Positions 28,120 to 62,274 of a stretch of 64,000 nucleotides of DNA are shown piece after piece. This stretch comes from Takakia lepidozioides (lineage: Eukaryota; Plantae; Bryophyta). The notes beneath the pieces are model-generated. The model did no database searches. It saw only the letters and a program-made list of their open reading frames with translations, and was not told the origin of the DNA. The position numbers and the translations under genes were made by a program. Location: contig CM060734.1 of assembly GCA_030704615.1 (NCBI GenBank), positions 23,002,001-23,066,000 of the forward strand, read 5' to 3'. Within the stretch, counting starts at the first letter, position 1; every line of letters begins with the position of its first letter.

Positions 28120-28735
28120 TACAAGCGTGACACAGCCTATCACAGCCTAACACAGCATGACACAGTCTATCACAGCCCATCACAGTGCCACACAACCTAT
28201 CACAACTCAACACAGCCTACCGGGGTTACACAGTCCCTAGGATCAATGACAGGTGGACGTGGGTTAACATCCGAAGAATGGCCGGCGGAAAAAGTGGATG
28301 GAGGCAGGTTTAGAAATGGACACGTGGACGCCAGGGCGAGACACACAGCCGGACATGAATTGCAAGAACGGGTGTCATCAAGAAAGAAGACAAAATTGGC
28401 CGTCAAAGTACCTACCCGGTACAGCAACTAATTGTGGGTCTATTAATGCATTCAGTGCCAGGGTAACGGAACCCTTTTCGAGTTCAGAAAAGGGAAACCA
28501 ATGCCACATGTGCTATCCTAGTGGACAGTCCAGGGGGGAAAATCCACGGAAGGGAATTAAATTACAAAACCAATCACAGAGCCAACAGCCAATCATGAGC
28601 CAGAATTACCTGCACAGGGTATTTTCCAAGAAGCAAAATCAAGAATTTAGAGGGATTCTGAGCGTAAGAGTCGGCGTCGTTCCAAGTAACGGGCGTCTCG
28701 ACGGGAGAGACAATCAAAGCTATAGCTTTGACGCT

Positions 28736-32477: not shown

Positions 32478-32516
32478 ACCGTGAGGACACGGCTTTTTGA
32501 GAGGGGGAGGGGTAAA

Positions 32517-33371
32517 TGTTAGAGGGCTGCTTGGGACATAAACGCTTTTACGGGTTCTGTGGGGTACCCTTAATTTTTGCGCAGACTGAGACCAACAGGA
32601 GCCTTAGGGGTGACACGGCCCGACACAGCCACACAGCCCGACACAGCTTGACACAGCCCGCCACAGCTTCGCACAGCCAGTCACAGCCAACACAGCCCAA
32701 CACAGCCCGACACAGCCTTACACAGCCAGTAACGGTTCGACACAGCTCGACACAGCTTGACACAGCTTGTCACATTACATAGGGAACAGTTATCATTGGC
32801 AGGGAACGACTGTGAGGGATGACGGTTAATTAGTTACGTGGTTAGAACAGCTTGGGGGCAGATAAGGAGAGGGGCAACGGAAAGAAGGACACTTCACGGG
32901 GGGGCGCTTCATGGTCATGGAGGAGAGGAGATCAGGCGGAGAGCAAGAACGAGAGCACGGAGTAGGAGGAGAGATGAACAGTAGATGCTTTACTTCATGC
33001 AGAGCTGTAGTGATACTATAGGGCGGATTAGAGTCACTTGACATTGGCCTAGTACCTGATAAATCGTAATCGGATACATATTGGATACAAGCACACTGTG
33101 TAGAGAGACATGAGTGAAGCTATGAAATGAATGCATGATTAACTGGAACTAAGAAGATACTGAAGGAAACTGATGCTTCAGTATCAGATAAGGTAAACTG
33201 ATAACATGAAGGCAAGAAGGAATACAAAGGGGAAGCACAACCATGATTCACTAGCTGCAGGTCATGACTGATTGTACTGAGCGGGCTGAGTGCTTAGAGA
33301 TATCCAACTCTTATATCTTGGAGTTTCCACCTCGGATAACGAAGGGATGGGTGAGTAAACCCCGCTCCACA
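32517..33371 (+). repeat. 3' LTR of Gypsy-2
   Basis: 855 bp; shorter than the 5' LTR through loss of CACAGC repeat copies; followed by TSD GGCAG. Confidence 0.95.
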
Positions 33372-33937
33372 GGCAGTAGTCTACTGCCCGTGATTCACAA
33401 CATGAACATGTGAATAAGAACATTGGCAACAATCTGCTGCCCATCTTTTCACCATATCAGCCAGCTTTATGGTTTTAAAACCAGATTTCCTTAAGGTATG
33501 GAAAAATGACATATAACGTTACACCTGGGCGTTTTTTAGTGGTGCTAAAAAGTATTAAGGCCCACGAGTAGGGAAGGCTTTTCATCATAAGGGATCTGAT
33601 GCTGACATAAGGCATCAACTACAGGTTACCAGTTAACAGGAGTAATGTGCATTGACCGGATCATGTAGAAGGTGTACACACATACTCTAACAGGCTGTTT
33701 TACCCGGGCCTAGCTCATAATATCAGTATGCAAGGAACCCTTAGATGTTCTTCAAGTAATATCAGCGATGCCTTTCTCTCGTTGTCCAATCCGCCAACAA
33801 ATTTTTGTTGGAGAGGATCATCATACCTTATGAGGTATTTGTTGCTCCACACTATTGGTATGGAGGTATAGGGGGCTGATACCCCATGGCTTTCCTAGAC
33901 CCATGCAAAAGCCATTAAAGGTGTTAGTACATCATAG

Positions 33938-35164
33938 TAAGAAAACTGGAAAATGGCAAGTGAGAGAGAGAGAGAGAGAGAGTGTGTGTGTGTGTGTACA
34001 AAAACCACTAAGTACACTGGTCAAGAATAGAGAGGGAAGATACTATGTCTTGTCGGGACATGGACAAGACCAAACAAGGTCTTTGTCAAATTAACGACAA
34101 ATCAGCCTCATAACAAGGCACTATCTAACTTCACCTTCCATAGGCAGTATCTTACCTGATAAAAACTCATGTCATCTTCCTGAAAACACATGAATAATTA
34201 GGGTGGGAGGGTGGGATTTCCAAGACAACCATCACCCTAGATTCAGAATATGTCATTCATCATTGAAGGAGTCTTGTTTTTCTTATAAAACAATCGGGAC
34301 CAACACCACCTTTGGTACATACCACATCAGCATAAACACTTGAGCCTTTAAGAATGAGTTGCAGGTGTTGCAATTCCAAGAGCCCAGCCTGATAATGTAG
34401 ACCAGCCAGCATGCTATGTCTATGTTCCATGAATGCACAAAGGTTTGGATCTGGTTTTCCAATCATCTCTCCAAAACTCAATCAGAGTGGAGTGCTACAA
34501 TGAGCATAATCAGAACTTTATAGACAACACCAACTCAAAGGGTATTCCAAAAGGCTAGTTTGATAAGTTAAACCAGCCCATGTGTATTTTGAAAAAGCCC
34601 AACAAGACCACTGCTTGGTATTCTTCCAAGTCAAGTACTGATTGGTACTTTCCAAGTCAACATAGTAAAACTGAACCTGTTTCAAATTCAAAGGATGGTT
34701 CCAATGGCATCGCTTGGCAACCTTAAAACATGTGTTATGTAATCTGAAAAGCCCATCACGCCAGCTGCTTGGTAATCTCTAAGTTAAAACAGTGTAACCA
34801 GGGCTGTTTTAAATTTAGAACTCTGACCTCAATGTTCAAAAACTACCGCTTGGTACTTACCGTGTTAAATCAGCATAAGACGGCCTATCTTAAGCATCAT
34901 TGGATAGCCTTATAAGGTCTGGAGATAGTACTCCAGCACCATATCAAAATGCAGCCGAAGCTCATACTGGTATCATGCCAGAAAACTGATTTACAATCGG
35001 GTCGAAAACCCCACTAATATGGTGCCAAAGTTCAGACTGGTATCATACTAGAAAACTGACTTATAATCAGGTTACAACCCATAAAAACAAAAAATGATTA
35101 AGGTTGAGAGGCCGAATCATATCAGATGCCCCACTGTAGCAGTATGTAGCGTCAATCATCACCA
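33938..35164 (+). repeat. ~1.2-kb duplicated segment, copy 2
   Basis: Matches 14128-15338; microsatellite is (GA)n(GT)n here. Confidence 0.9.
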
Positions 35165-36210
35165 GAGCTTGCGAGAGGCCTACACTCGGATGAGGCGCTT
35201 GATAAGTATGACCCAAGGGGTCACTGAAGCTCAGGCAGTCCAATTCTGGTATTGAATTTTGGACAAGGAGCTTAGGAGAAGGGTGCGGGATGCAACCCTG
35301 TTACAAGCGGCCCAACCCACCTTAGCATATGTGTTTCTGCTGGCTAGCGGATTGAGTTCAACATGGTGGAAGAGCGTGTAGTGACCATTGGGTTTGGCAA
35401 GGACATGCCACGGGTGTGTCTGCCAACCAACAAACGCAGCACACTGTACCGCAGCATGGTAAGGGGGGCAAGGTTGCCCAACCCAAATTCCATGGAGCTT
35501 ATATGGGACCTCATGTGCAGAGGCCAGTAGCTTCTTTTGCAGGCCAACAGCACCCAAGGGTGGTGTGTTGGACATGTGGAGGACCCCATGTCAAGAAGAA
35601 TTGCCCAAAGAGCGGCAAAAGGCCGGCTCAAACACAGCCTGCACAGTTGAAGTGTGGGCATTGTGGCAAGTATGAGCAGGGAGAGGCCCAATGTTATGAC
35701 TTGCACCCTGAGTTGCGGTGAGGCGAGTTCCAAGGGAACAATGGTGGCCAAGGGCGAGGTGGAGCACCTCAGAGAGGACGAGGTGGTCAGGCACGAGGTA
35801 CAGGATGAGGGGCGCAAGCACAACATGGCCAAGGACGTGGAGGTCAGGGCGTTGACCAAGGCATGGCCAACCGGCTTCAGCAGCTAGAGCAACGGCTTGC
35901 TGCCATGGCCACAGCTCAGGTGGTACCGGCTCTAAGACTTCAGGGTCCACCTCCTATTCCTCCTTAGCAGTGTCATCCTGACGGAGGAGACATGGCAGAC
36001 ATGGGAGGCATGGAATTTATGTGTGGAGCAGCACTCGCAGGATCACTTGTACAGGTGGATTCTGTTGCAGCTGTAACTCGGGGAGCACCACGAGTTCATG
36101 AGCCACAAGACGCAAAGTGGAGTTGGATCCACATCGTGGGGAGGCAAGCCGTCAGGCCAGGCTGCCTCAATCATTCACATTGGCGGAGACAATGTCGACC
36201 CCATCCATGA
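35165..36210 (+). pseudogene. gag: gag fragment of the DNMT-carrying Gypsy family
   Basis: Homologous to ~44386-45350; CWTCGGPHVKKNC and CGHCGKY..GEAQC knuckles; several stops. Confidence 0.85.
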
Positions 36211-37283: not shown

Positions 37284-38307
37284 TCAAGACCGGACTTGAT
37301 GCACACTGGCCATCACCTTGGCCCGAGAATCACCCATCAATGACACATTCTCCAAGATATATGCCGGAGAATCTGCCTTCTGAAGCTGTAAATAGCGCAG
37401 GACCCTCAACATCTCCCAAAACAGGCGTGACCTCAAGTCTTGTAACCCATTGCCATGCCTGGCTGATGAATGCCTTGGCAGGGCCAACCCGCCGGTACCA
37501 AGTGAATAGGGCCAACCCGCTCCAAATCTTGCGCCCCCAACAAAGAGATGTCTGTTGGCAAGGCTTGCTGGTATCCACGAACTACAGACACTGACAACAA
37601 ATCAGGGTACTGTTGCACCAACTGAGCAACATGGCGTAGTGAGACGCGTCGTGCAGTCTTATCCTTCTCCACATACAGGTAACGCCGAACTCGTACACCT
37701 GTCTGCAACACTGCAGCCAATCCAGTGTTGATCCCGCCAAACAAGTCCAGAAAGCATATGCCTTCATCCGGGCATTGCCACACAATAGGTGTGGTGTCCA
37801 ATGGCGGCAACTGAGGTGGTCTTGGTGCAATCACCGCACTCTCCTCCTCTCATGATGGTACAAAGGCCTCGACCCAGGCTTCTTGTACCCGTCTATCAGC
37901 AACCTGCTGCAAATCCTTGCTCGTGCCCCACAATGGAGTGCGAGCAGCCATGGCTGGCAACTCCACCGTACCATGCATATCATCCTGCTCTGCTGGAGGT
38001 GACACATCCTCTGCATGAGCATTTCCTTCTAGCAACTCTCCAGGCCAACTCACTGCATCTGTGAAGGCTGCTAGTGTCGGCATCTTGCCCCGCTGGGCAG
38101 CTGCAACACCCCCAATGAATGTCACAAGGAGTTGCACACGACGTCCATCTCCTGATTGCCATCCATGCCTATACGAGGCCGACTCCTCCCAAAAATCCAG
38201 GGTGAAGCCCATGGGATAGAATACTGCCCCACCAACCAACACATCATATTAAACTGCGTCCGTCACAATGGCCTTTGGCTCGCATAACTGAGCCATCTGT
38301 AGGATGG
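37284..38307 (-). pseudogene. Inverted fragment of DNMT-Gypsy pol: protease C-terminus, linker and DNMT motifs I-VI
   Basis: FLDLFGGINTG, YVEKD, AGWPCQG, YILENV; reverse-complement homolog of ~45873-46870. Confidence 0.9.
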
Positions 38308-39186: not shown

Positions 39187-40206
39187 AAGATCAGTGCAAA
39201 AGATCTCGTGGCCCATTCACACATAATTGTACTTGAAATCCAGGGCTCTGTCCCCCATTGAAGTTTAAAAAAAATGATCGCACGTATTTAAAATTTTAAT
39301 AATTATCTGTGACCAGCAATATTTGGTGGTCGCATGGTATTTATTAAATTGATAAATGTAAGACTAAGTCCAGGTTTGTAGTCCACTTGAGCTGCCACCT
39401 CGTCACTTGGGATAAAAATAAGCTAGTAAAAGTTTTTTAAAAAAAACAATTACATGAGTTAACAATATCCGTTTTGGACGTGACGCGACGCATGTCTGGA
39501 CGTGACGATGACGTAAAAGCGCCACGTCACGTCCGTATGCGCAACTAGGCCGTAATACTAGACTGGTCGGGTTGCAGGCGCCCTTTTTCCAAACCCTAGT
39601 TTGTCTATATCTTGGTATGAACCCGAGTATCGGCCCATCGAAGACCAGGTTGATCTAGTCCCTAACACCAGTATTGGTACCAGGGTCGATACCAAAGCAC
39701 TTTCCAATACCAGATCAACACTGGTTATAAGTCGTTGACTAGTGTTTGAATAATTGTATCATCAACACATGATCAAAATAGCGTTTGATGTAAGTATTAC
39801 AGGGAATTTTTGGTGAAATCGTAGATTTGAGCCAATACTGGATGATCTCATGAAACCTCCAACTATCAACCATGGCGCCATAAGTGTAAAAACGTGGATT
39901 CACATAGAACAAGTTTATCATGTGGAGGTTAAATCTCTTAAAAATTACTGATTATAATACTCGCTCAAACTACAACATAACAAATAAGCTATGAAGAATC
40001 TCTCTAGTACTGAAATGTATGCCTATCAGCCTACAGACAATATATAATGCTAATTGCTGTGACGTACCCCTACGAAGAAGGGACCAAAAATTTTAACTGC
40101 CTGCCTAGTGAGGACTGTGAAGAGCGTTATGGAGAGCCCGGGAAGAGAGGCGATATGATCAGTGATCAAAGTTGAGCTTCAGCAAAGTCTTGCCCTTGAT
40201 GTGCCT

Positions 40207-40641
40207 TGTCAAGTTAAATAAACACAGTGTGAAATTAACTAGAATAAAGCTAGTTATTTGTATTTAACACTTGGATTTAGTTCAAGTGTTAAGTCAGGTG
40301 TGAAGTTTAGGTTGACACCTAAACCATCTTATCTTCACGAGAGCGTCAGTCGTGCGGCTCATCTCTCTCGAGATGAGCCTGCACGACCGAGCTCCTTCAC
40401 TGCTTAGAATCTGAGTGTGCTTATGAAGGGAGAATAGGATATTGTGGGGTGGAGTCCCCATAGCTTGGGATGCCCCTGGCTCGACTCTTAGTTTAACGAG
40501 TGATGGTGATGTATTTCATGTTCTTGTGTCAACAGTGTGATTTTAGTTTTCAATCACTCGAGAGAGATCACGCTATCTAGTTTTCTAGTGCTAAGCTAGA
40601 TATGATGTTTGTTTTAGCACTATTATAATATAACTTGGTAT
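40207..40641 (+). mobile_element. LTR-like repeat (LTR-A) ending in a truncated tRNA-iMet-type PBS
   Basis: Starts TGTCAAG; first ~340 bp repeated at 53394-53734; ends ...ATATAAC-T-TGGTAT. Confidence 0.55.
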
Positions 40642-41405
40642 TATACAGGTCTGTGAATAATTCAGCTGAGTGTTTAACCATTCCGGAGCGGCAGAAAGCT
40701 ATTAAGCTTGCGGCGGATACTTCACTTGCAGTTACTGCTAGCGGATCTTGCTGGACTCACGCGTTTAGTAGAGAGCTTGCTCAGGCTACTGGGGATGAAT
40801 GCTGCCTGATTGATTCGTCAAGTAACGACGGGTTAGAGGTTAGCTCTTTTTCGTGCCTAGATTCTTCTGCAGCGATCCTGTCATCGTCTCAGGGCTGCCC
40901 GTGTGGAGTGGAGACGAAGGGCTTTGCCGTGGGTGACTCCAAGCCGGCCCGTTTTTTTGGATTCGGGAAAGGGGGTTATTGGCAAGTCACTAGAAAGCCT
41001 GTACTGGTGGCCAATTTTAAAAGGCTCGCAGGGAGATCTAGAAGGATTTTGTACAAGAATTCACGCCTCTATAAGGCATCAAACAGGAGACTCAGGGCAC
41101 TCCACAAATTTGTGGGGATCAAAACTGTAAGATCTTTGAAGAACTGCCACAGATTCGGATCTGATGCCGATCGTGGTGTGAACGCTCGGGTCAGTGATAC
41201 TCGCATCATGGATCTACAAAAGCTTATTCCTAGTGGAACAAGTATGGACACTCCCATTTTGCTGGAGGAGACCGCTGATTATTTGATGTTCCTGGAGCTT
41301 CAGGTGCAGGCCCTCCAATTGCTGGCTAACAAGATTGATTTACAAGCAAAACCTGTCGGGCAATCTGCCGAGAGCCTCATCTGCTTCTCGGAGGGGTTTC
41401 CGTAA
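40635..41405 (+). CDS. Atypical (non-DNA-binding) bHLH protein of the IBH1/AIF/UPBEAT-like group; 5' end missing or interrupted
   Basis: ERQKAIKLAADTSLAVTASGSCWTHAF motif and C-terminal RIMDLQKLIPSG..MD...LLEETADYLMFLELQVQALQ HLH; frame opens at TTG with no ATG before the motifs. Confidence 0.85.
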   Translation: MVLYRSVNNSAECLTIPERQKAIKLAADTSLAVTASGSCWTHAFSRELAQATGDECCLIDSSSNDGLEVSSFSCLDSSAAILSSSQGCPCGVETKGFAVGDSKPARFFGFGKGGYWQVTRKPVLVANFKRLAGRSRRILYKNSRLYKASNRRLRALHKFVGIKTVRSLKNCHRFGSDADRGVNARVSDTRIMDLQKLIPSGTSMDTPILLEETADYLMFLELQVQALQLLANKIDLQAKPVGQSAESLICFSEGFP

Positions 41406-41830
41406 ATGCCCAGCTTGCGCCCAGCCTTGTCTCAGTACGAAGGTGGCTATAGTGGTCAAGTCGCATGTTCTGAGTTGTGGCTCCAGGCATTAGTGAACCG
41501 TGAAATGAAGGTGGAGCCTAAGAATGTGAGCCCTGGAGCTGCAATGGTGTTACATTTCTAGTGGGAGGTATAGTCTGTAGATGTGGATCTCTAGTGAGGG
41601 TGAAAGCAGAGGAGACAGTGAACCACACCGCGAGCAGTGAATGGAGGTGTTTCGGATCATGCTTGAATGCACAGCTGCATCTCAGATTTACCCTCATGTG
41701 TTTCGGCTTCCATCTGGGACAAGGTAGTAGACAGGGGATCCATCTCATACAACAACGATAAGGTGGCCCATTGATCGCAGCAGCTTCAACAAGGTGTTAT
41801 TATTCTGACACTTGGAACTTGGCATACCAA

Positions 41831-41953
41831 TGAATCCAGAGAAGTGTACTTTCTGTGTGAACTCAGGGGTGCTTCTGGGACACATTGTGTGTAAGAAGGG
41901 ACTCCTTGTGGATCCCAGAAAGACAGAGTCCATTAAAGCCTCTCCACCACCAG
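41831..41953 (+). other. Isolated 123-bp copy of Gypsy-1 RT sequence (6160-6282)
   Basis: Identical except for one C/T difference; no flanking element sequence. Confidence 0.9.
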
Positions 41954-42396
41954 CACATTACCTTTATCATGGTAGTTCCAGTCTTGATTGAGTTGAAAAA
42001 TCTAAGATCGTCATATTTCAGATATGAGCCTGGCATGAGTCCAAGGAATTCTTAGGGAACCTGCAGTGAATGGCAAAAAACGTGGGAACAGGGAACGAAA
42101 GGAAACCAATTAAAAATAGTTTTTCCTTGTATTTGTTTCTATTTAAGGTCATATATTATATTTACAGAGCCTCTTTGGCCATATCTTTGTCATATGAGCC
42201 CCGTTTGATACAGTTTTTGAGGGGATAGCTGTAGAAAGGGGAAATCTACCTATCTAGTTCTGGTTTTAGTTTTTTGGACTCTGCTAAAAATCTATGGAAT
42301 TTTTTGAGTGTGAGTGTGCTATGAAAGATCCACAATTCTGTTTCTAGAACCTGTTGTGGTCTACATGAGAGACAAATCTGGGGATGTCCTCCTTGT

Positions 42397-43110
42397 ATGG
42401 CTGGGGGAAATGAGGAAGTAATTGAAGGGCAGGTCTCTTCTCTTAGCCTGTGCACACGAGGGGACAAGATTTATGTTTCTCAAAGGGCTCAGACTGATTT
42501 GAGTGGAGAGCAGTTGGACGAGTTGATTGCATACTGGGAGTCAGGCATTAGCAATAGACAACAAACTGCTGTAGTTGGCGTTGCGGGCCTCAATATTGCT
42601 TTGGACAGTCAGAACTCTGTTGGAGCGAGCAGTTCTGCAGCTGTAGGTGAAATACCAAAGTGGGTGGAAGCTAGGCTTGGAACACAGCCAAAGACAGCCC
42701 CGAGGACCAAGGTGTTCAGCCACAAGGCCGTGGTGTACTGGAGCAAAGGAACAGGAGCTACACAAGTTTTTGTAATCAGACATGGTTGCAGCCGGACACG
42801 CTCTGCACAAGGCAACCATGAGCGGGGGTTCATTAGCAATGACAAGTTTGTTCTGCTTGAAGGAGATGTAGTCATTTGCAATGAGGACACTCGCAACCGT
42901 CTCAAAGCTTTCGAGTTGAGAGACTGTCAGACCCTACCTTTATTTTCCTTAGTATTCAGTGAGCGGGAGATAGAGAAGTATTGCTTTGTCTCTACCTGGC
43001 AGAAAGAGGAGGAGGGTTGGTTAGAGCGAGCTACTATAGCTTGGGACAAGGTTAGTGGCAGGTTTCTGGACATAGATATACCTCCTACATCTTACCATCA
43101 TGCAGAGTGA
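42397..43110 (+). CDS. Hypothetical 237-aa protein, possibly an upstream ORF of the DNMT-Gypsy element
   Basis: ATG-initiated uninterrupted ORF with normal amino-acid composition; no recognised motif. Confidence 0.4.
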   Translation: MAGGNEEVIEGQVSSLSLCTRGDKIYVSQRAQTDLSGEQLDELIAYWESGISNRQQTAVVGVAGLNIALDSQNSVGASSSAAVGEIPKWVEARLGTQPKTAPRTKVFSHKAVVYWSKGTGATQVFVIRHGCSRTRSAQGNHERGFISNDKFVLLEGDVVICNEDTRNRLKAFELRDCQTLPLFSLVFSEREIEKYCFVSTWQKEEEGWLERATIAWDKVSGRFLDIDIPPTSYHHAE

Positions 43111-43717
43111 GGCACTTTGAGAGTCTGGCAGTTGATAGCATAGATCAGGATTAGATCTTGCTTGGTCGGGCCTCTATTCTTCCCCTCCCTCTTTTTACTA
43201 TTTTCATTACTTTGTACTTGTAGTTGCCAAAGCCTCTCTTGGTGGAGGCCAGTCAGTCCGGGGTTTTGGGTTGGGATATTCTGCAGGATCACAGATGGAT
43301 TTTGGTGTGGGGGTGTTGATGTTTTGATTTCTTGTGTTTGGATCCCCCCCAACACCTGCATGCTTGATTGTGCGCCATGTTGGTTTTGTGTGGGCGCTTG
43401 CTTTGATAGGGATTAGGCCGGATTTGATCACCGGTCAATCCTAGAGTATGCTGTCGGTAAAGAGGCTGGAGTGATGACTAGCAAGACCACCAGTGTTTCT
43501 TCTATGGTGAGACTGGGTTGATGACCAGCCAACCATAGGAGTTCTTGCGGTGGATGCAGGTGCAGGTGCCCTTAGCCACAGGGATATGACCCTTAATCCG
43601 AAACAGGTGCTCACCCGTGTCACTATTAGAATTAGTATTAGAGCCTTATAGTGTCACGTGGGGGAGGTGCGGGTTGTGAGTGTCATCACGGAGTTACCCA
43701 AGGGTTTTGAGGGGAGT

Positions 43718-45350
43718 ATGGCTACAGGCAGTAGCAATGAGAGTGGGTTCAGCAGACGAGGTGTTCGTTTCAGACCACCTTCACCTCCACCCTCAACTAG
43801 TGTAGAGTCAGACACAGACTCAGAGGCTTCATCAACAGGTGTGCAGTTTCATTCGCCATTGTTGTGGGACGACATGGAGGAGATGTATGGAGCTACCAAG
43901 TTGCCTCGTAGGTACTCTGGAGCTATGGGCACAATCGAGCTGGATGACTTTATCCAGGAGTTCGACAGCTGGTGTGATTTGCAGCAGATGCGCAATCCAC
44001 AGCTGTTCACCCCATTCATGGCGTGGAAAGGCCCGCCTATGGACGATTACCACGAGTTCAGGCAAGGACAAGAAGTAGAGATTGAGGAGTGGAGGATGTA
44101 TTGGTCACCTGACTACGTCTCCATTACTCGAGGCACGACGCGACCAGTAGCTGCATCAGCACCAATATCTCCCACTGCCAGCACTAGTAGTAGAACAAGT
44201 GGTGCTGGTACTTCTGCAGGTGGTACCAGTTCTAAAGGTGCTACCACTCCTCCTGCCACGACTACAACACATGTGCCTAGATTCATCCCGGTGGTGGAGT
44301 TATTCCAGGAGTTGCGGAGGAACTATCAAGGCATACGGACAGAGAAGCTGCGAAGTTTGCAAGACTTCCAGCGCAAATCCAGTGAGAGCTTCCGAGAGGC
44401 CTACACTCGTATGAGGCGCTTGATAAGTGTGACCCAAGGGGTTACTGAAGCTCATGCAATTATGGTATGGAATTTTGGAGAAAGAGCTCAGGAGAAGGGT
44501 GCGGGATGCAACCCTGTTACAAGCGGCCCAACCCACATTAGCAGATGTGTTTCTACTGGCTGAGCGGATTGAGCTCAACATGGTGGAGGAGCGAGTTGTT
44601 ACCATTGGATTTGGCAAGGACATGCATGCACGAGGCGCAGCTGCTAGCCAACAGGCACAAGGGACTGCCCAACAGCGTGGTCAGGGGGCAAGGTTGCCCA
44701 ACCCAAATTCCATGGAGTTTACAGGGGACCTCAGGTGCAGAGGCCAGTAGCTTCTTTTGCAGGCCAACAGCAACCAGGGGTGGTATGTTGGACATGTGGG
44801 AGACCGCATGTCAAGAAAGATTGCCCAGAGAGTGGCAAAGGGCCGGCACAAGCACATCCTGCACAGTTGCAGTGTGGGCATTGTGGCAAGTATGGGCATA
44901 GAGATGCCCAGTGTTATGACTTGCACCCTGAGTTGCGGCGAGGCCAGTTCCAAGCGAACAATGGTGGCCGAGGGCAAGGTGGAGCATCTCAAAGAGGACG
45001 AGGTGGTCAGGCACGAGGTGTAGGACGAGGGCAAGCATAGTATGGCCAAGGACGTGGAGGTCAGGGCGTTGATCAAGGTATGGCCAACCGGCTTCAACAG
45101 CTAGAGCAAAGGCTTGCTGCCATGGCCACAGCTCAGGTGGTACCAGCTCCAAGACCTGAGGGTCCACCTCCTGTTCCTCCTCAACAGTGTCATCCTGACG
45201 GAGGAGACATGGGAGGCATGGGATTTATGTGTGGGGCAGCACTACCACTAGTGCAGGTGGAGTCTGCTGCAGCCGTCACTCGAGGAGCAGCACGAGTTCC
45301 TGAGCCACGAGGTGCAGAGGTGGAGTTGGATCCACAGCGTGGGAAGCGGC
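43718..45350 (+). pseudogene. gag: gag of DNMT-Gypsy
   Basis: LDDFIQEFDSWCD...LQDFQRKSSESFREAYTRMRRL; CWTCGRPHVKKDC and CGHCGKYGHRDAQC knuckles; frameshifts. Confidence 0.85.
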
Positions 45351-45357
45351 CACCTCT

Positions 45358-46044
45358 GTGTGTGAGACCCCACTGTTCTCGGCAACCATGATTGCGACGC
45401 CAGGGGTAAGACCAGCTGCAGTGTTCAGACTAGCAGCAACATTCTGCGAGAGTGGGGAGATCACTTCATCTTCTGCGGAATTAGTGGAAGGTGTAGTGGC
45501 AGAGGGATCCTCGGATTTGAGGGTCAAGACTGCCATGGCTGCGCCATGGCAAGCTACAGCTGCCAGGTTGATGGAGCTGCCAGCTAGGCCAGCCTTTGAG
45601 CGCGCCATGGTGACACTTGGAGTTGTCTTGTTAGACAACCAGGATGACATTTTCTCTTTGAGTGGACCGGCAGGCAAGAGGTACCGGCCACTGCGGGTCT
45701 TGTTGGACTCGGGAGCTCAGCCACTGATGTTGGGCAGAGCTGTTATTGCACGTTTGGGCCTCATAGAGGCGGACATGGAGCCTTGTCCTTTCCAGATACA
45801 GACATCTCTGGGAGGATCAGAGCAGGCTCGGGGCATGACACGGCGTGAGTTGGCCATTAGACTACAGCCGGATCATCCTATAGATGGCTCAGTGATACGA
45901 GCCAAGGCCATTGTGACAGATGCGGTCTCTTACGATGTCCAGTGTTATATCCCATGGGCTTCACCCTGGATTTTTGGGAGGAGTCAGCATCCTACAGGCC
46001 TGGATGGCAGTCAGGGGATGGTTGTCGTGTACAGCTCCCTGTGA
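45358..46044 (+). pseudogene. Aspartic protease domain of DNMT-Gypsy
   Basis: RVLLDSGAQPLMLG (DSG at 45706-45714). Confidence 0.85.
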
Positions 46045-46344
46045 CATTCATTGGGGGTGTTGCTACTGCCAGCGGGGCAAGATGCCAACACTAGCAGCCT
46101 TCACAGCTGCAGTTAGTTGGCCTGGAGAGTTGCTGGAGGGCAATGCCCATGCAGAGGATGTGCCACTTCCAGCAGAGCAGGATGACATGCATGATACGGC
46201 GGAGTTGTCTGCCATGGTTGCTCACACTCCATTGTGGGGTACGAGCAAGCATTTGCAGCAGGCTGCTGATAGACGGGTGCAACAAGCCTGGGTAGAGGCC
46301 TTTGTACCGTCAGGAGAGGGGGAGAGTGCGGAGGACCATCTCAG

Positions 46345-47646
46345 TTGTCTTCATTGGACACCACACCTCTTGTGTGGCAATGCCCACATGAAGGCATATG
46401 CCTTCTGGACTTGTTTGGCGGGATCAGCACTGGATTGGCTGCAGTGCTGCAGGCAGGTGTACGAGTTCGACGTTACCTGTATGTGGAGAGGGATGAGACT
46501 GCACGACGCGTCTCACTGCGCCATGTTCCTCAGTTGGTACAGCAGTATCCTGATTTGTTGTCAGTGTCTGCAGTTCGTGGATACCAACAAGAATTGCTAG
46601 CAGACATCTCTTTGCTGGGGGCGCATGATTTGGAGCGGGTTGACCCTATTCACTTGGTAGTGGCAGGTTGGCCCTGCCAAGGACATTCATCAGCCGGGCA
46701 TGGCAATGGGTTACACGACTCAAGGTCACGCCTGTTTTGGGAAATATTGAGGGTCCTACGTTATTTACAACTTCAGCAGACAGACTCTCCAGCATATATC
46801 TTGGAGAATGTGCCATTGATGGGTGATTCTCGGGCCAAGGTGATGGCCAGTGTGCATCAAGTGCGGTCTTGGCTTGGGTTAGCAGTGTTGCTGGATGCAG
46901 CTGCAGTGGGGTCACGGGCTCATCGCCCACGACTATGGTGGACCAACTTGATGTCACCTGCACTGCTCAAGCGTGCATTTGATGGGGTGCAGCGGCCACC
47001 ACACCTGACGGTGGATAGCATTTTGGACATAGGGAGACAATCTCAGCGTGTGAGACACGATGACCGATCACCTTTGGCAGTGGTCAATAAGGTGGGTCAC
47101 CCACGAGCCGCATTGCCTACACTGCTCAGTTTTCCAGGATCCCATGCTTTTCGGGATGGTGGACCTGGCCTCTTGTGGGATAGCCAGTTGCACCAATAAG
47201 TGGAGCCCAATGCTGACGAGCGCGAGCGGGCGATGGGTTTTACCACTGGTACCATGGCGGTGCCATCTCTTTCTGAGGCATCACGTCGTCAGGTGTTGGG
47301 GCAAGCAATGGATCTCAATTGCTTGACCTGGATTATCAGCTTGGCTATGGCTAAGCAGCGCCGAATACGGAGTACAATTCCCTTGATGGTATCCCTGCCT
47401 ACCGAGACGGTACAGGCAGCAAGTGGGGGCGAACAGGTGAGGACCACAAGGTGCAAGCCGCATCCATGGCACACGTGGGAGGTGCTCGAGGTTCAAAAGG
47501 AGTTGGCAGCCAAGGCGGCCGTGATGGATGAGGTTGGGGATTTTTCTCGGGTTGAGGAGGTCCTCAAGGATGGGATGATGGGGCATGATGAGACATTGTC
47601 ACTGACAGAGGAGGCAGTGGTCACTGCTCAAGAGGTTGCAACATAA
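46345..47646 (+). pseudogene. DNMT3-like C5-cytosine DNA methyltransferase domain within Pol
   Basis: Motif I LLDLFGGISTG, II YVERD, IV AGWPCQGHS (46672-46680), VI YILENV, VIII AHRPRLWWTNL, IX ERERAMGF, X RRQVLGQAMD; one in-frame TAA at 47197. Confidence 0.93.
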
Positions 47647-47772
47647 CAACCACGGGACGCGTCTTCTACCTCTAAGCCTGCTGGACTCAAGGTTGCAGTC
47701 ACGGAGGACAACTGGGAGCCAGATGTTGGACCTATAGTCACCGGAGGAGAAAGATGACGTATACGGCGGTTC

Positions 47773-49218
47773 TTGAGGGCTTACAAGAACTGCTTTGCCT
47801 TCAGTTTGAAGGACTTAGGAGCACTGAAGGGTCAAGAGATTCGCATTGAATTGGCTACTAACACGCCAATCTTTCGGAGACCCTATAGATACAGTGACAT
47901 GGAGAGGTCCTTGATTCAGATGAGAACTCGGGACCTTAGGGAGGCTGGTTTGGTGGAGCTATATGGGGGAGAGTATGCTTCAGCCACAATGATGCCAGCC
48001 AAGAAGGATGTCGATGGCAATTGGACGGAGAGACGTATGTGCGATGATTACCGGCCTGTAAATCGTCAGACCAAGTCCGATAGGTATGCCATGCCGACAC
48101 CAGAGGAGATCTTTGATGCCATTGGGCATGCCAAGGTCTTTAGCACTTTGGATTTACGATCCGGATATCACGAGTTGCCGATCAAGGAGGCGAATAAGCA
48201 GAAGACGACATTCTGGGGGATTAATGAGCATGGGAAAGATTGCCTATACCAGTGGCGGTTCTTACCATTTGGGCTTAAGAACGCTCCGGCAGAGTTTCAG
48301 AGAGTCATGGACAGGATTCTAGCAGGGGTGGAGTTTGCTCGGTGGTGCTACATAGATGACATCATCATCTTTAGTGCTACGGTGGAGGAGCATGAGAGAC
48401 ATCTTCAGGTGATATTTGAGCACTTGAGGACGTACGGATTGAAGTTACATCCGGGGAAGTGCAAGTTTTTCCACAACCAAATTGAGTATCTGGGTCACAT
48501 GATATATCCTGGAGGATTGGGGGTACAGCAGACTAAGGTAGAGTCCATTGCACAGATTCCACGCCCCACGGATGTGAGCCGAGTTCGAGCTTTCATGGGG
48601 TTAGCAAACTATTATAGACGGTTTGTTAAGGGATTTAGTGCCATTGCAAAGGCTCTAACCAAACTGACCAAGGTGGACCAGGAGTGGCAGTGGGAAGATG
48701 AGCAAGAATAAGCTTTTCAAGAGCTCAAGGCGAGGTTGACCTCGGCGCCCATCTTGAGACGACCTATCAGGGGGCGTCTTTTTCAGCTGCATACAGATTG
48801 GAGCATGTTGGGGCTTGGAGCGGTGCTCACACATGTGGATGATGAGGGAAGAGAGCTCGTAGTGGCTTATGCTAGCCGCTCGAACAACGCTGCAGAGTCT
48901 AAGTACAGCTCATATGAGGGAGAATGCTTAGTTGAAGTATGGGCCGTGATATACTTCAGGTGCTATCTATACGACAATCTCTTCACCCTTGTCACGGATC
49001 ACCAACCACTCAAGTGGTTGATGGAGTCAGACAAGCTTACGGGGAAGCTTGCATGGTGGGCACTCATCCTTCAAGAGTATGACTTTCAGGTTGTGCATCG
49101 ACCGGGTTTGGTCAATCGGGATGCAGATGGGTTGAGTCGCAATCCATGCACGAGCCTGCAGGATGATACTGGAGCTCGGTGGCATGGTGAGACGGAGGAG
49201 GAGATGGTGCCCAGATAG
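47773..49218 (+). pseudogene. pol: Reverse transcriptase and RNase H of DNMT-Gypsy
   Basis: FSTLDLRSGYH, LPFGLKNAPAEFQR, YIDD (48349-48360); LHTDWS...YSSYEGECL...TDHQPL; in-frame stops. Confidence 0.95.
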
Positions 49219-49235
49219 CATGCATCTGCATTTCT

Positions 49236-50360
49236 GTGTATCTTGGCAGCGAAAGGCCAGGTTGGACCTACAACAAGGATGACTGTAAGGATCCTGAGGC
49301 CAACAATGAGCAAGGTGGCGCCAAAGATATACATGAGGATTCAGCTGTGTTGGACTACCTCCGCACTGGAGACACCGCAGCCACTGTGATTGCCAAGGAG
49401 AGGGATCGGATCCTACAACGAGCCAAGAGGTTCAAGTGGGAGGGGACATACCTGCTCCGAGTGTGGGAGGATGGTCGAGTGAGGATTGTGCCTCACCCAA
49501 CACAGCGGGCACGGTTAGTGCGGCATGCTCATGAAGAGTTGGGGCATTTTGGGGTGCGACGCACTCATAGTCTACTGCAGGGGCAGTATTGGTGGCGTGG
49601 TATGCACACAGAGGTGCAACAATTTGTGGCTAGGTGCATGGTGTGTGACAGGGTGCGTGCTTCATTCAACGCCCCTACTCCACAATTGCACCCTCTTCCG
49701 ATCATGGGATTGGGCTACAGGTGGAGTCTTGACTTTGCAGGGCCGTTGCCACTGACCATGCGCCACAACAAGTACGTGTTGGTGATGGTGGAGCACTTCT
49801 CCAAGTGGATCGAGTTGGTTCTATTGCCTGATATGGCTAGTGAGGGAGCTGCGTATGCATTCTTGGATTGTGTACTTAGCCAATTCGGTGCTCCAGCTGA
49901 GGTACTCACGGACCAAGGGAGAGAGTTCTTGGGGGAGTTTCAGGCGTTGTGTGACAAGGCCTTGGTAGACCACCGCACCACTTCTCGGGATCATCCTGAG
50001 GCCGATGGCTTGGCAGAGAGGGTTTTTCAGATAGTGAAGAGGGGTTTGCGCAAGTATGGCTTGTAAAAGGGACACCTAGGAGACTGGGACCTTCAGTTAC
50101 CTTGGTTAGCCATGGGCTACAGGTTCAGCAAGCAAGCATCACTTGCCTCCTTCTCACCATACTTTCTTCTCTTTGGCCGAGAGCCGGATTTGCCTGCATC
50201 CATTCGTAGAGAAGCTGCTACAGTTCTCAACCTTGACAATCCGGACATGTGGGCACGTGCATGTGATCAGCGTGCAGAGTTGTTCAAGAAAGTCATGCCC
50301 ATGGCTTTCGAGAACCTTGCCATTGTACAACATCGTGATACGTTGAGGTATGCTACCATA
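49236..50360 (+). pseudogene. Integrase of DNMT-Gypsy, C-terminus truncated
   Basis: HEELGHFG...CMVC zinc finger; WSLDFAGP, LTDQGREF, GLAER (DDE); SPYFLLFGREP. Confidence 0.93.
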
Positions 50361-50361
50361 G

Positions 50362-53097
50362 TCGTTCAATGGGCCGACGGATGGTTGCCCATCCAAATGA
50401 TTTTCGTTCGCTGTGAGACTTGGCCAGTGTGTTCAATGTACCCTCCGATAGGTCCCAGTGTAATATGAGATCAATCGAAATTCGTTCCATGGGCCGATGA
50501 GGCGTTCAGTTGTCATCTGGTTTTTGTTCATTGCGAAAAAAAAGAAATCCTGCAATGCGTGCACGGCTATTGCACCCATTGAACGGATGTGGTTGAAGCC
50601 CCTCTTTTGCCCGCATGTGCTTGAACATGCGTGCGACACAACAGACGAATAAATCATTTGCCTCCCCATCGACACCGAGCCATTCCATAATGTAATTGAA
50701 TTTAAATTAATTTTAAGCCAATAAATAGGTTTGCACTGCCTTTCATTGGGGGTTTCTGGCACGTATCGATTTTGTTTCTGGCTCCATTTTGTTCTGCGGC
50801 TTCCAGCATCCCACCACTACTCCCCCGCCAAAATTTGGGCCAATCAAAAATGCCCCCAAAAAAAAGTGTTCTCTTTTGCTCACTATTGCAGAACTCTCTA
50901 TGAAGAGTGCATGAAAGTTGAACACAAATCAAGTTTGGAGTGCAAAACGGGGAAGAAACTGTGGTTTTGGGTCCAAATGAATTATGTTCGCTCCCAAATT
51001 TGGCACGCACGTTGCATATGGCTACATTACACGCCCCATTCAAAAACCGAATGAAAAAACAGAATCGCGAGCACGCGAAACACAGTCCAACAGGTCCCAA
51101 AGCAATAGCAGATCCAGCGGAATACATTCAACGGGTGAACGGATGGTTGCCCATCCAAATCATTTTTGTTTGCTTCCAAACTTTGCCAATACGTTCGAGA
51201 CACCCTCTCACAGGTCCCGGACTAATATCAGATCAATCGAAATTCATTCGATGGCTCAACGGATGGTTGGCCATCGAGATGATTTTGGTTCGCTTTGAGA
51301 CTTGGCCAGTATGTTCAACGTGCCATGGAAGAGGCCCCAGAGTAATATGAGATCAATCGAAATTCGTTCAATGGGCCGACGGATGGTTGCCCATCCAAAT
51401 GATTTTCGTTCGCTGTGAGACTTGGCCAGTGTGTTCAATGTACCCTCCGATAGGTCCCAGTGTAATATGAGATCAATTGAAATTCGTTCCATGGGCCGAT
51501 GAGGCGTTCAGTTGTCATCTGGTTTTTGTTCATTGCGAAAAAAAATAAAATCCTGCAATGCGTGCACGGCTATTGCACCCATTGAACGGATGTGGTTGAA
51601 GCCCCTCTTTTGCCCGCATGTGCTTGAACATGCGTGCGACACAACAGACGAATAAATCATTTGCCTCCCCATCGACACCGAGCCATTCCATAATGTAATT
51701 GAATTTAAATTAATTTTAAGCCAATAAATAGGTTTGCACTGCCTTTCATTGGGGGTTTCTGGCACGTATCGATTTTGTTTCTGGCTCCATTTTGTTCTGC
51801 GGCTTCCAGCATCCCACCACTACTCCCCCGCCAAAATTTGGGCCAATCAAAAATGCCCCCAAAAAAAAGTGTTCTCTTTTGCTCACTATTGCAGAATTCT
51901 CTATGAAGAGTGCATGAAAGTTGAACACAAATCAAGTTTGGAGTGCAAAACAGGGAAGAAACTGTGGTTTTGGGTCCAAATGAATTATGTTCGCTCCCAA
52001 ATTTGGCACGCACGTTGCATATGGCTACATTACACGCCCCATTCAAAAAACCGAATGAAAAAACAGAATCGCGAGCACGCGAAACACAGTCCAACAGGTC
52101 CCAAAGCAATAGCAGATCCAGCGGAATACATTCAACGGGTGAACGGATGGTTGCCCATCCAAATCATTTTTGTTTGCTTCCAAACTTTGCCAATACGTTC
52201 GAGACACCCTCTCACAGGTCCCGGACTAATATCAGATCAATCGAAATTCATTCAATGGCTCAACGGATGGTTGGCCATCGAGATGATTTTGGTTCGCTTT
52301 GAGACTTGGCCAGTATGTTCAACGTGCCATGGAAGAGGCCCCAGAGTAATATGAGATCAATCGAAATTCGTTCAATGGGCCGACGGATGGTTGCCCATCC
52401 AAATGATTTTCGTTCGCTGTGAGACTTGGCCAGTGTGTTCAATGTACCCTCCGATAGGTCCCAGTGTAATATGAGATCAATCGAAATTCGTTCCATGGGC
52501 CGATGAGGCGTTCAGTTGTCATCTGGTTTTTGTTCATTGCGAAAAAAAAGAAATCCTGCAATGCGTGCACGGCTATTGCACCTATTGAACGGATGTGGTT
52601 GAAGCCCCTCTTTTGCTCGCATGTGCTTGAACATGCATGCGACACAACAGACGAATAAATCATTTGCCTCCCCATCGACACCGAGCCATTCCATAATGTA
52701 ATTGAATTTAAATTAATTTTAAGACCCAAAGCAATAGCAGCTCCAACAAAATACATTCAACGGGTGAACGGATGGTTGCCCATCCAAATCATTTTTGTTA
52801 GCTTCCAAACTTTGCCAGCACGTTCCAGACACCCTCTCACAGGTCCCGGACTAATATCAGATCAATCGAAATCTCATTCAATGGCTCAACGGATGGTTGG
52901 CCATCGAAATGATTTTGGTTCGCTTTGAGACTTGGCCACTATGTTCAATGTGCCATGTAAGAGGCCCCAGAGTAATATGAGATCAATCGAAATTCGTTCA
53001 ATGGGCCAACGGATGGTTGCCCATCCAAATGATTTTCGTTCGCTTTCAAACCTTGGCCAGTGTGTTCAATGTACACCCTCTGATACATCCCAGTATA
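50362..53097. repeat. Tandem repeat with ~1.0-kb unit (~2.7 copies) containing ~110-bp subrepeats
   Basis: TCGTTCAATGGGCCGACGGATGG at 50362, 51364, 52368; each subrepeat carries GGATGGTTGCCCATCC. Confidence 0.93.
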
Positions 53098-53306
53098 CTA
53101 GGAGACCTTGAACACACGAGATCCTGGCTCAAGTTCACAGATTGCAAGACGACGACTAATGATGGGGCTACTCTTGTACCCGGCCTCTTGGTCTATAGAG
53201 TTTGAGTACAATAGGGACAGTGATAGAGGACTTAGTACGGCTGTGGCTATTACATCTTGTAGCTATCTGGAGTTAGAGGGACCTATCCACCAGCTAGGGG
53301 GGCGAT

Positions 53307-54138
53307 TGTGGCAGACTACTTTATTGTCCATATATGTGTGGTATAGTTTGGACAGCAATGTAGTTGTGTAGCGATACGTATGCGCACAACAGCTGTCAAG
53401 TTAAATAAACACAGCGTGAAACTAACTAGAATAAAGCTAGTTATTTGTATTTAATACTTGGATTTAGTTCAAGTGTTAAGTCAGGTGTCAAGTTTAGCTT
53501 GACACCTGAACCATCTTATCTTCACGAGAGCGTCAGTTGTGCGGCTCATCTCTCTCGAGTTGAGCCTGCACGACCGAGCTCCTTCACTGCTTAGAATCTG
53601 AGTGTGCTTATGAAGGGAGAATAGGATATTGTGGGGTGGAGTCCCCATAGCTTGGGGTGCCCCTGGCTCGACTCTTAGTTTAACGAGTGATGGTGTTGTA
53701 TTTCATGTTCTTGTGTCAACAGTGTGATTTTAGTTGTGGCAGACTACTTTATTGTCCATAAATGTGTGGTGTAGTTTGGACAGCGATGTAGTTGTGTAGC
53801 GATACGTATGCGCACGATAGCCTCCAGTTGATGTCGTGGTCGAAGTCTGGCGATTCAGGGCAGGGGCGAGTTGCAATTTCTCTATTCTTGAGGGATTGAG
53901 CTCCAAATGCAGGTTGTTGGCGAAGGGCTTGTGCATATGATTCCATGCATTGCCCATGAGGTGATGAAGTCGTGGAGCTGATATTGAGCTTGCGAATGCT
54001 TGCTGATGTCTACACAAAGTTTGGCCCAGACTTTCCGAGCTTCAGTTTGGATGTCAAAGAAGATGTGTAGTGTTAGACTACACACTCGCAGCTCTCCAAG
54101 TTGTTCCATAATTTCAGAGTAATAAAGTTTTTGTAACA
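53307..54138 (+). mobile_element. Nested LTR-like pieces: PPT plus LTR-B start (53307-~53387), truncated LTR-A (53394-53734), LTR-B restart (53735-54138)
   Basis: AGGGGGG tract then TGTGGCAGACTACTTTATTG twice; ends AATAAAG...TGTAACA; LTR-A matches 40207-40547; no TSD found. Confidence 0.5.
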
Positions 54139-60053: not shown

Positions 60054-62274
60054 AGCTCAAACAGTGTGCGTTGACGCACACTGTTTGAGCTGCAAGGTAA
60101 GTGTTCATTGAACCTCAAAGACATGCCACGTAAGTGTTCATTGAACCTCAATGAGAAGCCCTTAGTGGCCGATTTTCAGATGAAAAAAAAAGAAAAGGTG
60201 AGCTCAAACAGTGAGCGTTGACGCACACTGTTTGGGCTGCAAGGTAAGTGTTCAGTGAACCTCAGAGACATGCCACGTAAGTGTTCATTGAACCTCAGAG
60301 ACATGCCAGGTAAGTGTTCATTGAACCTCAAAGAGAAGCCCTTAATGGCCGATTTTCAGATGACAAAGGCAATGACAAGGTGAGCTCAAACAGTGTGCGT
60401 TGACGCACACTATTTGAGCTGCCAGGTAAGTGTTCATTGAACCTCAGAGACATGCCCTGTATTGCCGAATTTCACAGAGGAAAAACAGTGACAAGGTGTG
60501 CTCAAACAGTGTGTGGCAATGCACACTATTTGAGCTCCTAGGTAAGTGATGATTGATCCTCAAATACAAACCCTATGTGGCCGATTTTCAGATGACAAAG
60601 GCAATGACAAGGTGAGCTCAAACAGTGTGCATTGACGCACACTGCTTGAGCTGCCAGGTAAGTGTTCATTGAACCTCCGAGACATGCCCTATATTGCCGA
60701 ATTTCACAGGGAAAAAACAGTGACAAGGTGTGCTCAAATAGTGTGCGGCAACGCACACTGTTTGAGCTGCCAGGTAAGTGATGATTGATCCTCAAATACA
60801 AACCCTATGTGGCCGATTTTCAGATGACAAAGGCAATGACAAGGTGAGCTCAAACAGTGTGCGTTGACGCACACTGCTTGAGCTGCCAGGTAAGTGTTCA
60901 TTGAACCTCCGAGACATGCCCTGTATTGCCGAATTTCACAGGGAAAAAACAGTGACAAGGTGTGCTCAATCAGTGTGCGGCAACGCACACTGTTTGAGCT
61001 CCTAGGTAAGTGATGATTGATCCTCAAATACAAACCCTATGTGGCCGATTTTCAGATGACAAAGGCAATGACAAGGTGAGCTCAGACAGTGTGCGTTGAC
61101 GCACACTGTTTGAGCTACCAGGTAAGTGTTCATTGAACCTCCGAGACATGCCCTGTATTGCCGAATTTCACAGGGAAAAAACAGTGACAAGGTGTGCTCA
61201 ATCAGTGTGCGGCAATGTACACTATTTGAGCTCCTAGGTAAGTGATGATTGATCCTCAAATACAAACCCTATGTGGCCGATTTTCAGATGACAAAGGCAA
61301 TGACAAGGTGAGCTCAGACAGTGTGCGTTGACGCACACTGTTTGAGCTGCCAGGTAAGTGTTCATTGAACCTCCGAGACATGCCCTGTATTGCCGAATTT
61401 CACAGGGAAAAAACAGTGACAAGGTGTGCTCAATTAGTGTGCGGCAACGCACACTGTTTGAGCTCCTAGGTAAGTGATGATTGATCCTCAAATACAAACC
61501 CTATGTGGCCGATTTTCAGATGACAAAGGCAATGACAAGGCGAGCTCAAACAGTGTGCGTTGACGCACACTGTTTGAGCTGCCAGGTGAGTGTTCATTGA
61601 ACCTCCGAGACATGCCCTGTATTGCCGAATTTCACAGGGAAAAAACAGTGACAAGGTGTGCTCAAACAGTGTGTGGCAACGCATGCTGTTTGAGCTGCCA
61701 AATAATTGTTCATCGATCCTCAGAGACATGCCCTATGTGGCCAATTCTCAAATGAAAAAGGCAATGATAAGGGTAGCTCAAACAGTGTGCGCCAACGCAC
61801 ACTGTTTGAGCTGCCAGGTAAGTGATGATTGATCCTCAAATTCATACCCTATGTGGCCGATTTTCAGATGACAAAGACAATTACAATGTGAGCTCAAACA
61901 GTGTGCGTTGACGCACACTGTTTGAACTGCCATGTAAGTGATGATTGATCCTCAAATATATGCCGTTTGTGGCCGTTTTTCAGATGAAAATACAATGACA
62001 AAGTGGGCTCAAACAGTGTGCGCCAACGCACACTGTTTGAGCTGTCAAATAGTGGAGAATTGAACCGGGCATAGTGGCCCTATCTGGCCGTTTTTCACAC
62101 CATCAACCAAGTAAAATGCGGGGCTCAAATAGTGTGCGTCAACGCACACTGTTTCAGCATCCAATTCGTGGTGGATTTAACCTACCGTAGTTCCCCTATT
62201 TGGTTGTTTCGCACATCAACAAGCCAGCAAAATGGAAGGCTCAAACAGTGTGCGTCAACGCACACTGTTTGAGC
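60054..62274. repeat. Array of 19 36-bp palindromes GCTCAAACAGTGTGCGT-NN-ACGCACACTGTTTGAGC with 116-bp period (232-bp higher-order A/B unit in the middle)
   Basis: Starts at 60055, 60202, 60384, then every 116 bp to 61892, then 62007, 62123, 62239. Confidence 0.95.

Follow-up and report, generated by a model that had tools for sequence, protein, structure and literature searches.

The 64,000-nucleotide stretch of Takakia lepidozioides analyzed here (contig CM060734.1, positions 23,002,001 to 23,066,000; hereafter the window) contains, at 40207-53819, a dead 13.6-kb copy of a Ty3/Gypsy retrotransposon that carries a DNMT3-like C5 cytosine methyltransferase. Judging from sequence conservation, the stop at 47644 in this copy is not decay, and the Gag-protease open reading frame (ORF) of the family ends with the methyltransferase. 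Elements of this kind are already known from an alga; the land-plant range and the conserved stop were absent from the literature searched. A first-pass annotation of the window had described a long terminal repeat (LTR) retrotransposon at 45358..49218 with the methyltransferase inside Pol, in one frame with the reverse transcriptase (RT) and RNase H (RH) and separated from them only by point stops. The LTR retrotransposon and the shared frame were borne out, whereas the element extends far beyond those borders, the stop at 47644 is a conserved family feature, and the domain lies at the C-terminal end of a Gag-protease (PR)-DNMT ORF closed by that stop.

We found TAG or TAA followed by YAR-YY in 61 of the 64 related loci that reach this site, which represent about five independent subfamilies, and because the stop recurs in this way the methyltransferase ends the Gag-protease ORF. 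At the stop, TAG made up 99% of the depth in run X1 and none of the next six bases had a variant at ≥5%; other copies in the source organism read TAG CAA CCA. DNMT and RT were in frame in 46 of the 59 rows holding both (58 loci and the window). A decay accident was rejected as the origin of this shared frame, as the indel that makes P0043 end early occurs in one contig only and the frame is conserved. Copies with long ORFs exist: locus L068 has exactly two, a 1369-aa Gag-PR-DNMT and a 1047-aa RT-RH-integrase (IN)-PHD, with one TAG CAG TTA between them. The second codon behind the stop encodes Pro, Leu or Ser with YY kept, while the surrounding amino acids diverge. Unbroken relatives end 50-140 residues past the domain, and Marchantia gene models of ~1281 aa end 72 residues past it. 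In the window copy, the DNMT/RT/RNase H frame holds stops at 47197, 47644, 47755, 48709 and 49216, of which that at 47755 is missing from nearly all aligned contigs. The CAR-YYA context is, as described in PMC2754532 and PMC5397192, the tested readthrough signal of the tobacco mosaic virus (TMV) type in plant viruses, with C at +4 most important, and retroelements are described as requiring a large excess of Gag over Pol. Together, these sequence features make it likely that RT-integrase-PHD is reached by readthrough of the stop. A possible stem 3′ of the stop (+10..+27 with +80..+115), taken from the structure of L073, was paired in 70% of cells, with all slid controls lower (39-55%), and showed two-sided changes at 6 of 12 pairs; single folds gave z of -0.4 to -2.8, and the duplex was better than dinucleotide shuffles (5% level) in only 3 of 9. 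The candidate stem resembles structures described in PMC3159437.

The presence of a C5-methyltransferase domain between protease and RT, proposed in the first-pass annotation, was confirmed by a PF00145 match at 46273-47196 (E = 1e-11; 45.3 bits, cut-off 22 bits), motifs I-X including the catalytic Cys (IV), Glu (VI) and RxR (VIII), and a matching fold; motifs VIII-X, which it had called DNMT3-like, can be aligned with DNMT3A. An AlphaFold model of the domain, with X at the internal stop, had a pLDDT of 90 and its best Foldseek matches were DNMT3A/B (E 1.5e-18). VIA-align placed DNMT3B (Z 28.0, root-mean-square deviation 2.6 over 276) ahead of M.MpeI (24.2), HhaI (22.6) and DNMT1 (18.8), and phmmer gave 2e-11 for DNMT3A/B vs 3e-4 for HhaI and 0.013 for DRM2. 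DNMT3A/B is the closest solved relative by sequence and fold, and the label "DNMT3-like" is justified. With one element profile, DNMT3A scored 78.7 bits, five phage enzymes 58.4-72.9, DRM 30-41 and DNMT2 24-25. A host plant DNMT3 was rejected as the identity of the domain, given the absence of the C-terminal DUF3444, of which Pfam scans of 26 relatives and of the first ORF of L068 found none. DRM was rejected as well, as motif order I-X is unpermuted and DRM2 aligns only to model residues 1-146. The catalytic loop PCQGHS is closer to prokaryotic enzymes than to the PCNDLS of DNMT3; Atlas ranks 2-3 for the domain were phage clusters, and an IMG/VR scan returned only 13 phage methylases, all weak. 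Five of the collected loci (L094-L098) encode C5 methyltransferases of phages whose motifs I and VIII are DNMT3-like, and bear on the origin of DNMT3.

Other family copies retain the domain and its catalytic residues. Among rows with a residue at the position, Cys was present in 145/147, Glu in 148/150, and the two arginines of RxR in 146/149 and 145/148. The ratio dN/dS was 0.11-0.15 for the domain in three unsaturated between-lineage pairs (L068, L072 and L073), compared with 0.04-0.17 for RT, and 0.94 for a pair of dead sister copies. Purifying selection acts on the domain. C-to-T differences between copies followed the order CG>CHG>CHH, and this pattern is uninformative because a neighboring non-DNMT element shows a like order.

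Two homolog searches returned 96 and 44 homologs. Named close homologs, with identity up to 73% over the whole query, came from Marchantia polymorpha, M. paleacea, Calypogeia fissa, Riccia sorocarpa and three Sphagnum species. Given these relatives, found on chromosome-scale records of Marchantia, Calypogeia, Riccia and Sphagnum, the lineage reaches land plants, as the first reading had suspected. Closterium and Haematococcus supplied the named distant homologs (36-43%). Names of vascular plants, Physcomitrium or Klebsormidium did not occur among the homologs in this word-limited search, in which about a quarter of the matches were named; a third search covered only proteins of 3360-5000 aa, yielded 6 matches and did not reach Klebsormidium. 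One Marchantia cluster had 18 members, several of them Gag-PR-DNMT models of 1278-1281 aa, and unbroken models in M. polymorpha comprise Mp4g09160, Mp5g06330, Mp5g06860, MpVg00370 and MpVg00540. The last two are unbroken copies on the male V chromosome and are annotated as hypothetical or CCHC proteins.

Trees were built with FastTree only, without reference lineages, and the RT tree excludes P0105, P0108, P0111, P0135 and P0139, which are spliced or chimeric models. The window grouped with Marchantia and Sphagnum-like rows in the RT tree (support 96) and with Marchantia, Calypogeia and Sphagnum in the DNMT tree (support 100). A second architecture, RT-RH-DNMT-IN(-PHD), was found in 64 complete RT-RH-DNMT-IN rows including the chlorophyte Haematococcus; the profile behind this list had integrase and PHD columns and was biased to the DNMT-IN-PHD order, so that these counts do not represent frequencies. 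The domain changes position once on the DNMT tree, and the rows concerned form one RT branch (99). This pattern fits a single old capture and a single relocation of the domain, two captures from related donors being possible as well. The RNase H-DNMT-integrase-PHD clade is large (P0129, P0137, P0159 and related rows), and many of its members have Glu for the Pro of the PC motif. The PHD finger of relatives resembles those of CHD4, PHF21A and KDM5-PHD1, which read unmethylated H3K4, a role played by the ADD domain for animal DNMT3.

The element has the domain content of Ty3/Gypsy (Gag-PR-RT-RH-IN order, DDE integrase), whereas its ends form an A...B-A-B layout instead of two identical full LTRs with a tRNA primer site. 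This split layout is complete in the window element, where the copies of A are 97% and those of B 94% identical, and in four related loci (L019, L067, L077 and L078). Contigs joining across the empty site were found in both runs of one sample (three in X1, three in X2), and a 4-bp target-site duplication (TSD) flanks the window element and 8 of the 11 loci having both ends, the exceptions being L031 (3 of 4), L038 and L078. The right end of the window element is TA, not CA. Among loci with both ends, B and A meet internally at CA-GC-TG or a decayed version of it. L017, L067, L077 and L078 have an exact A2/B2 junction; in the window it is seemingly shortened, and in L019, L045 and L048 it has extra bases, with primer-site sequence retained in the latter two. 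No tRNA-type TGG primer site was seen behind A in the window or the related loci. Self-complementarity behind A extends over 12 nt in the window, where none of 300 shuffles gave a pairing that long, 17 nt in L067 and 12 nt in L078 (A2); in L019 and L077 it is only 6-8 nt and not significant. The pairing of 12-17 nt is thus shared by two families with differing sequences (window, L067, L078), and suggests self-priming as a candidate function, the mechanism used by Tf1. Membership in DIRS/Ngaro was ruled out by the rve integrase and 4-bp TSD, and no tyrosine recombinase was matched in Pfam scans of 26 relatives and of the L068 ORFs. The family is highly repeated in the source organism, as seen from the approximately 100,000 short contigs of run X1 that align to the 14-kb stretch, a depth that does not equal copy number; no RNA data set was listed as containing the element. 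Six loci (L031, L035, L038, L047, L053 and L062) are A-internal-B copies ending after one B, with a perfect 4-bp TSD in 4/6; they probably arose by recombination between the two B repeats, an analogue of solo-LTR formation.

We further compared the element with known systems, as far as the published accounts describe them. DNMT3-bearing Gypsy elements are known from Klebsormidium nitens since 2018 (PMC5890265) and were still cited as the streptophyte or algal case in 2025-2026. KnitGypsy-Dnmt3 shares with the window element the Gypsy domain set, a non-permuted, intronless DNMT3-related domain, split repeats (A-coding-B-A-B) and purifying selection, but its DNMT shares an ORF with RT and RNase H (PMC5890265), whereas a conserved stop divides them in the window clade, whose hosts are liverworts and Sphagnum rather than an alga. 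This stop is missing at the site in more distant relatives including Closterium (P0157, P0161 (Closterium) and P0238), which have a KnitGypsy-like single DNMT-RT-RNase H ORF. SymbioDIRS-Dnmt3 and SymbioLINE-Dnmt of Symbiodinium are also retrotransposon-borne C5 methyltransferases, and the former shares the split-repeat layout and the two domain orders, its domains being reported to perform de novo CG methylation in yeast (PMC5890265); in contrast to the window element with its DDE integrase and 4-bp TSD, they use a tyrosine recombinase or LINE machinery. EpiLTRs/DAM-LTRs are likewise Ty3/Gypsy elements with DNA methyltransferases and a chromatin reader, but have a DNMT4-related enzyme, an adenine methylase and a chromodomain; the same preprint treats "streptophyte Gypsy-DNMT3" as a separate acquisition, its main text using neither the word Marchantia nor land plant (bioRxiv 10.64898/2026.05.21.726589). 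Similarly to host PpDNMT3a/b, the element has a DNMT3-type catalytic domain with motifs VIII-X aligning with DNMT3A, but it lacks their DUF3444 and, unlike DRM, is not permuted (PMC6453930). TMV-type UAG-CAR-YYA, SIRE1, murine leukemia virus (MuLV) and Tca2 resemble it in the single in-frame stop, CAR-YY context and possible 3′ stem (PMC2754532, PMC5397192, PMC3159437, PMC2194720). The stop of the element differs in lying behind protease and methyltransferase and ahead of RT rather than at gag/pro or pol/env. Gypsy-7a_cRei of Chlamydomonas, likewise a Gypsy element of the green lineage, has unequal LTR ends and a PHD finger, but its listed domains include no methyltransferase (PMC9940879).

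Given these data, we see a shade more than an even chance that the high-copy bryophyte Ty3/Gypsy family represented by this dead element packages a methyltransferase made at Gag level, uses a leaky stop and methylates its own cDNA. Gag-PR-DNMT would be the product of most ribosomes, with readthrough to RT-RH-IN-PHD limited to a minority; because the domain precedes the likely leaky stop, the methyltransferase would be made at coat-protein (Gag) levels. The protease of the element may release the domain, which would be packaged in bulk in the particle and act there on the nearest DNA, the new cDNA, before insertion. New copies would then be methylated already on arrival, in chromatin unmethylated at H3K4; this preference is a guess based on what the PHD resembles. 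As to the parts of this reading, activity of the domain on DNA appears likely, and the cDNA in the particle has slightly better than even chances of being the substrate. More tentatively, and with failure of the whole chain the more probable outcome, an old green-lineage Ty3 clade ranging from chlorophytes to liverworts and peat mosses may pack a working DNMT3-like enzyme, raised in land plants to capsid level via a leaky stop, its self-primed, end-joined cDNA being methylated before PHD-guided insertion.

Several observations weigh against this reading. The loci that share the stop are mostly near-copies out of few metagenomes, and their commonest context (50/64) is CAA-CCC, one base off CAR-YYA, the strict form occurring only in 5/64 (L004, L031, L068, L072 and L073) and the window family. 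RNAalifold yielded no consensus structure and no consensus pairs behind the stop, so the 3′ stem is a lead only. The scores of DNMT3-like phage enzymes come close to that of DNMT3A, 72/148 rows have another residue in place of the Pro of the PC motif, and selection on the domain shows that it has some function, not which. CpG depletion in the element (0.35-0.44) is weaker than in the adjacent non-DNMT Ty3 (0.10-0.21), and its composition thus gives no sign of self-methylation. The Gypsy-DNMT3 of K. nitens, the sole one tested, gave no methylation in yeast, a result that its authors regarded as inconclusive (PMC5890265).

The same anatomy could also serve a different route to Pol, from spliced or sub-genomic RNA or by re-initiation, which would leave the methyltransferase at Gag level and to which we assign a small chance. 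TAG is compatible with a 3′ splice acceptor (YAG), spliced pol is found in Ogre elements and foamy viruses, and an ATG lies two codons behind the stop in the Sphagnum-like family; Tca2 is described as having a gag-pol stop without a need for readthrough (PMC2194720). However, the frame is maintained across a single stop, and the conserved bases C-A-R-Y-Y sit 3′ of it, as in readthrough signals. The first ATG behind the stop falls at codon 3, 14, 48, 85 or 117 and thus lacks conservation; that of L068 and that of the window lie inside conserved RT sequence. Slightly more room is left for a methyltransferase acting chiefly on chromatin of the host or the insertion site, or on sibling copies in a self-limiting silencing, rather than on cDNA in the particle, although we consider this improbable too: strong expression together with Gag would yield free enzyme as well, and in the second architecture (64 rows) the domain stands directly before integrase-PHD, pointing to action at integration, but fusion to Gag favors packaging.

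Retention of the domain for nucleic-acid binding or RNA methylation instead of DNA C5 methylation appears less likely still. The inactivity of KnitGypsy-Dnmt3 on yeast DNA (PMC5890265) and the absence of extra CpG loss in the element agree with it, yet the residues for DNA C5 catalysis are almost invariant across 150 diverse rows, and DNMT2 at 24-25 bits falls far under DNMT3 at 79 bits. That the element reflects a single passive capture, faulty assembly or algal contamination is very improbable, and this reading is refuted for the family, since the domain order recurs in dozens of loci and on named bryophyte chromosomes, and the empty site with its TSD, the purifying selection and the second copy in the window speak against it as well. 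Should packaging and self-methylation of cDNA hold true, each new copy would have an epigenetic state of its own from the start, and Marchantia would possess many unrecognized genes for de novo methyltransferases that could alter the methylome of the host. From the conserved stop, capsid-level stoichiometry is predicted for the enzyme, an unusual situation for an accessory domain, and DNMT inventories of bryophytes may overlook mobile DNMT3-like genes or count them wrongly. The role of retrotransposon DNMTs was left open by De Mendoza et al., whose sole Gypsy example was algal and inactive in yeast (PMC5890265). Our literature search, with subscription papers, theses, Repbase/REXdb and the 2018 Supplementary Information outside its scope, found no report of DNMT3-Gypsy elements in bryophytes or of the stop. 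The self-methylation idea is directly testable, because unbroken copies exist in M. polymorpha, a transformable model with methylation mutants.

Table 1. Features of the DNMT-bearing element and of a second copy in the window
Feature	Position	Strand	Remarks
Second-copy fragment: Gag	35164..36143	+	86% identical
Second-copy fragment: linker and DNMT motifs I-VI	37285..38306	-	frameshifted after PCQ; 88% identical
Target-site duplication, 4 bp	40203..40206 (left), 53820-53823 (right)	+	empty-site joint 40203->53822
Repeat A, 5′ copy (342 bp)	40207..40548	+	TG start; 332/342 identical to 53394-53735; Kimura two-parameter distance 0.030
Candidate primer-binding site for Tf1-like self-priming, 12 nt, directly after repeat A	40557..40568	+	complementary to 40361-40372 inside A
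Open frame of 258 codons, bHLH-like C-terminal part	40629..41405	+	no upstream ATG; PF23176 bHLH_LHW E 0.013-0.06, below cut-off
Extra ORF ahead of gag, Met at 42397	42325..43110	+	unbroken, 237 aa; no known family
Gag with zinc knuckles	43718..45346	+	PF03732 E 0.002, below cut-off; frameshifts and deletion near 45346
Aspartic protease, LLDSG at 45700	45580..45939	+	weak profile match, E 0.004, below cut-off
DNMT3-like C5 cytosine methyltransferase domain	46345..47370	+	motif order I-X canonical: I 46405, II 46474, IV (PCQ) 46663-46680, VI (ENV) 46798, VII 46888, VIII 46915, IX 47203, X 47284; motif span 46405 to 47313; stop 47197 where relatives are open
Conserved in-frame stop and CAA-CCA (CAR-YYA), end of Gag-PR-DNMT ORF	47644..47652	+	predicted readthrough site
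Possible long-range RNA stem 3′ of stop	47653..47766	+	arms ~47653-47673 and 47742-47766; tentative
Reverse transcriptase (YIDD at 48349) and RNase H	47758..49170	+	RVT_1 7e-32, RNase H 2e-30; stops 47755, 48709
Integrase, H2C2 finger and rve core	49320..50360	+	rve 8e-14; truncated at 50360
Tandem array, ~1003-bp units with 120-bp subunits	50362..53105	+	2.7 kb; replaces ~470-nt integrase tail of related contig
Candidate polypurine tract, short purine tract ahead of B1	53296..53302	+	like the G-run ahead of B1 in L017, L019, L067, L077, L078
3′ end, B1(53307-53391)-GC-A2(53394-53735)-B2(53735-53819)	53307..53819	+	B1/A2 junction CA-GC-TG

The remaining coding parts of this copy (Table 1) are decayed to varying degrees. 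Gag is 44% identical to residues 1-466 of Marchantia Mp4g09160. The protease is in the frame of the DNMT, but the linker between them has frameshifts that cancel out. The RNase H-integrase junction is frameshifted, with the integrase in another frame, and the C-terminal PHD finger present in relatives is missing from the window integrase. Units of the tandem array behind it are 99% identical, and the array is highly repeated in the source organism. The extra ORF ahead of gag had no match in 80 related loci and is part of the repeated element family in the source organism. Over the bHLH-like frame, contig depth is far below that of the rest of the element and contigs share loose ends at 41831; most family copies therefore have other sequence there. 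This frame belongs to a minority variant of the 5′ region and is possibly a captured piece of a host gene, perhaps IBH1/AIF-like. An Rfam scan of the window gave no match.

Elsewhere in the window, two related non-DNMT Ty3 elements (613-13894 and 20465-33372, plus strand) are 80-92% identical and have ~1-kb LTRs; both show strong CpG depletion and contain long extra ORFs 3′ of the integrase with no Pfam match. A ~1.8-kb unit with a minus-strand ORF forms 2.5 tandem repeats of 95-98% identity at 15926-20463 and 33372-33824. Finally, a 116-bp satellite at 60304-62274 has a higher-order period of 232 bp and an internal palindrome.

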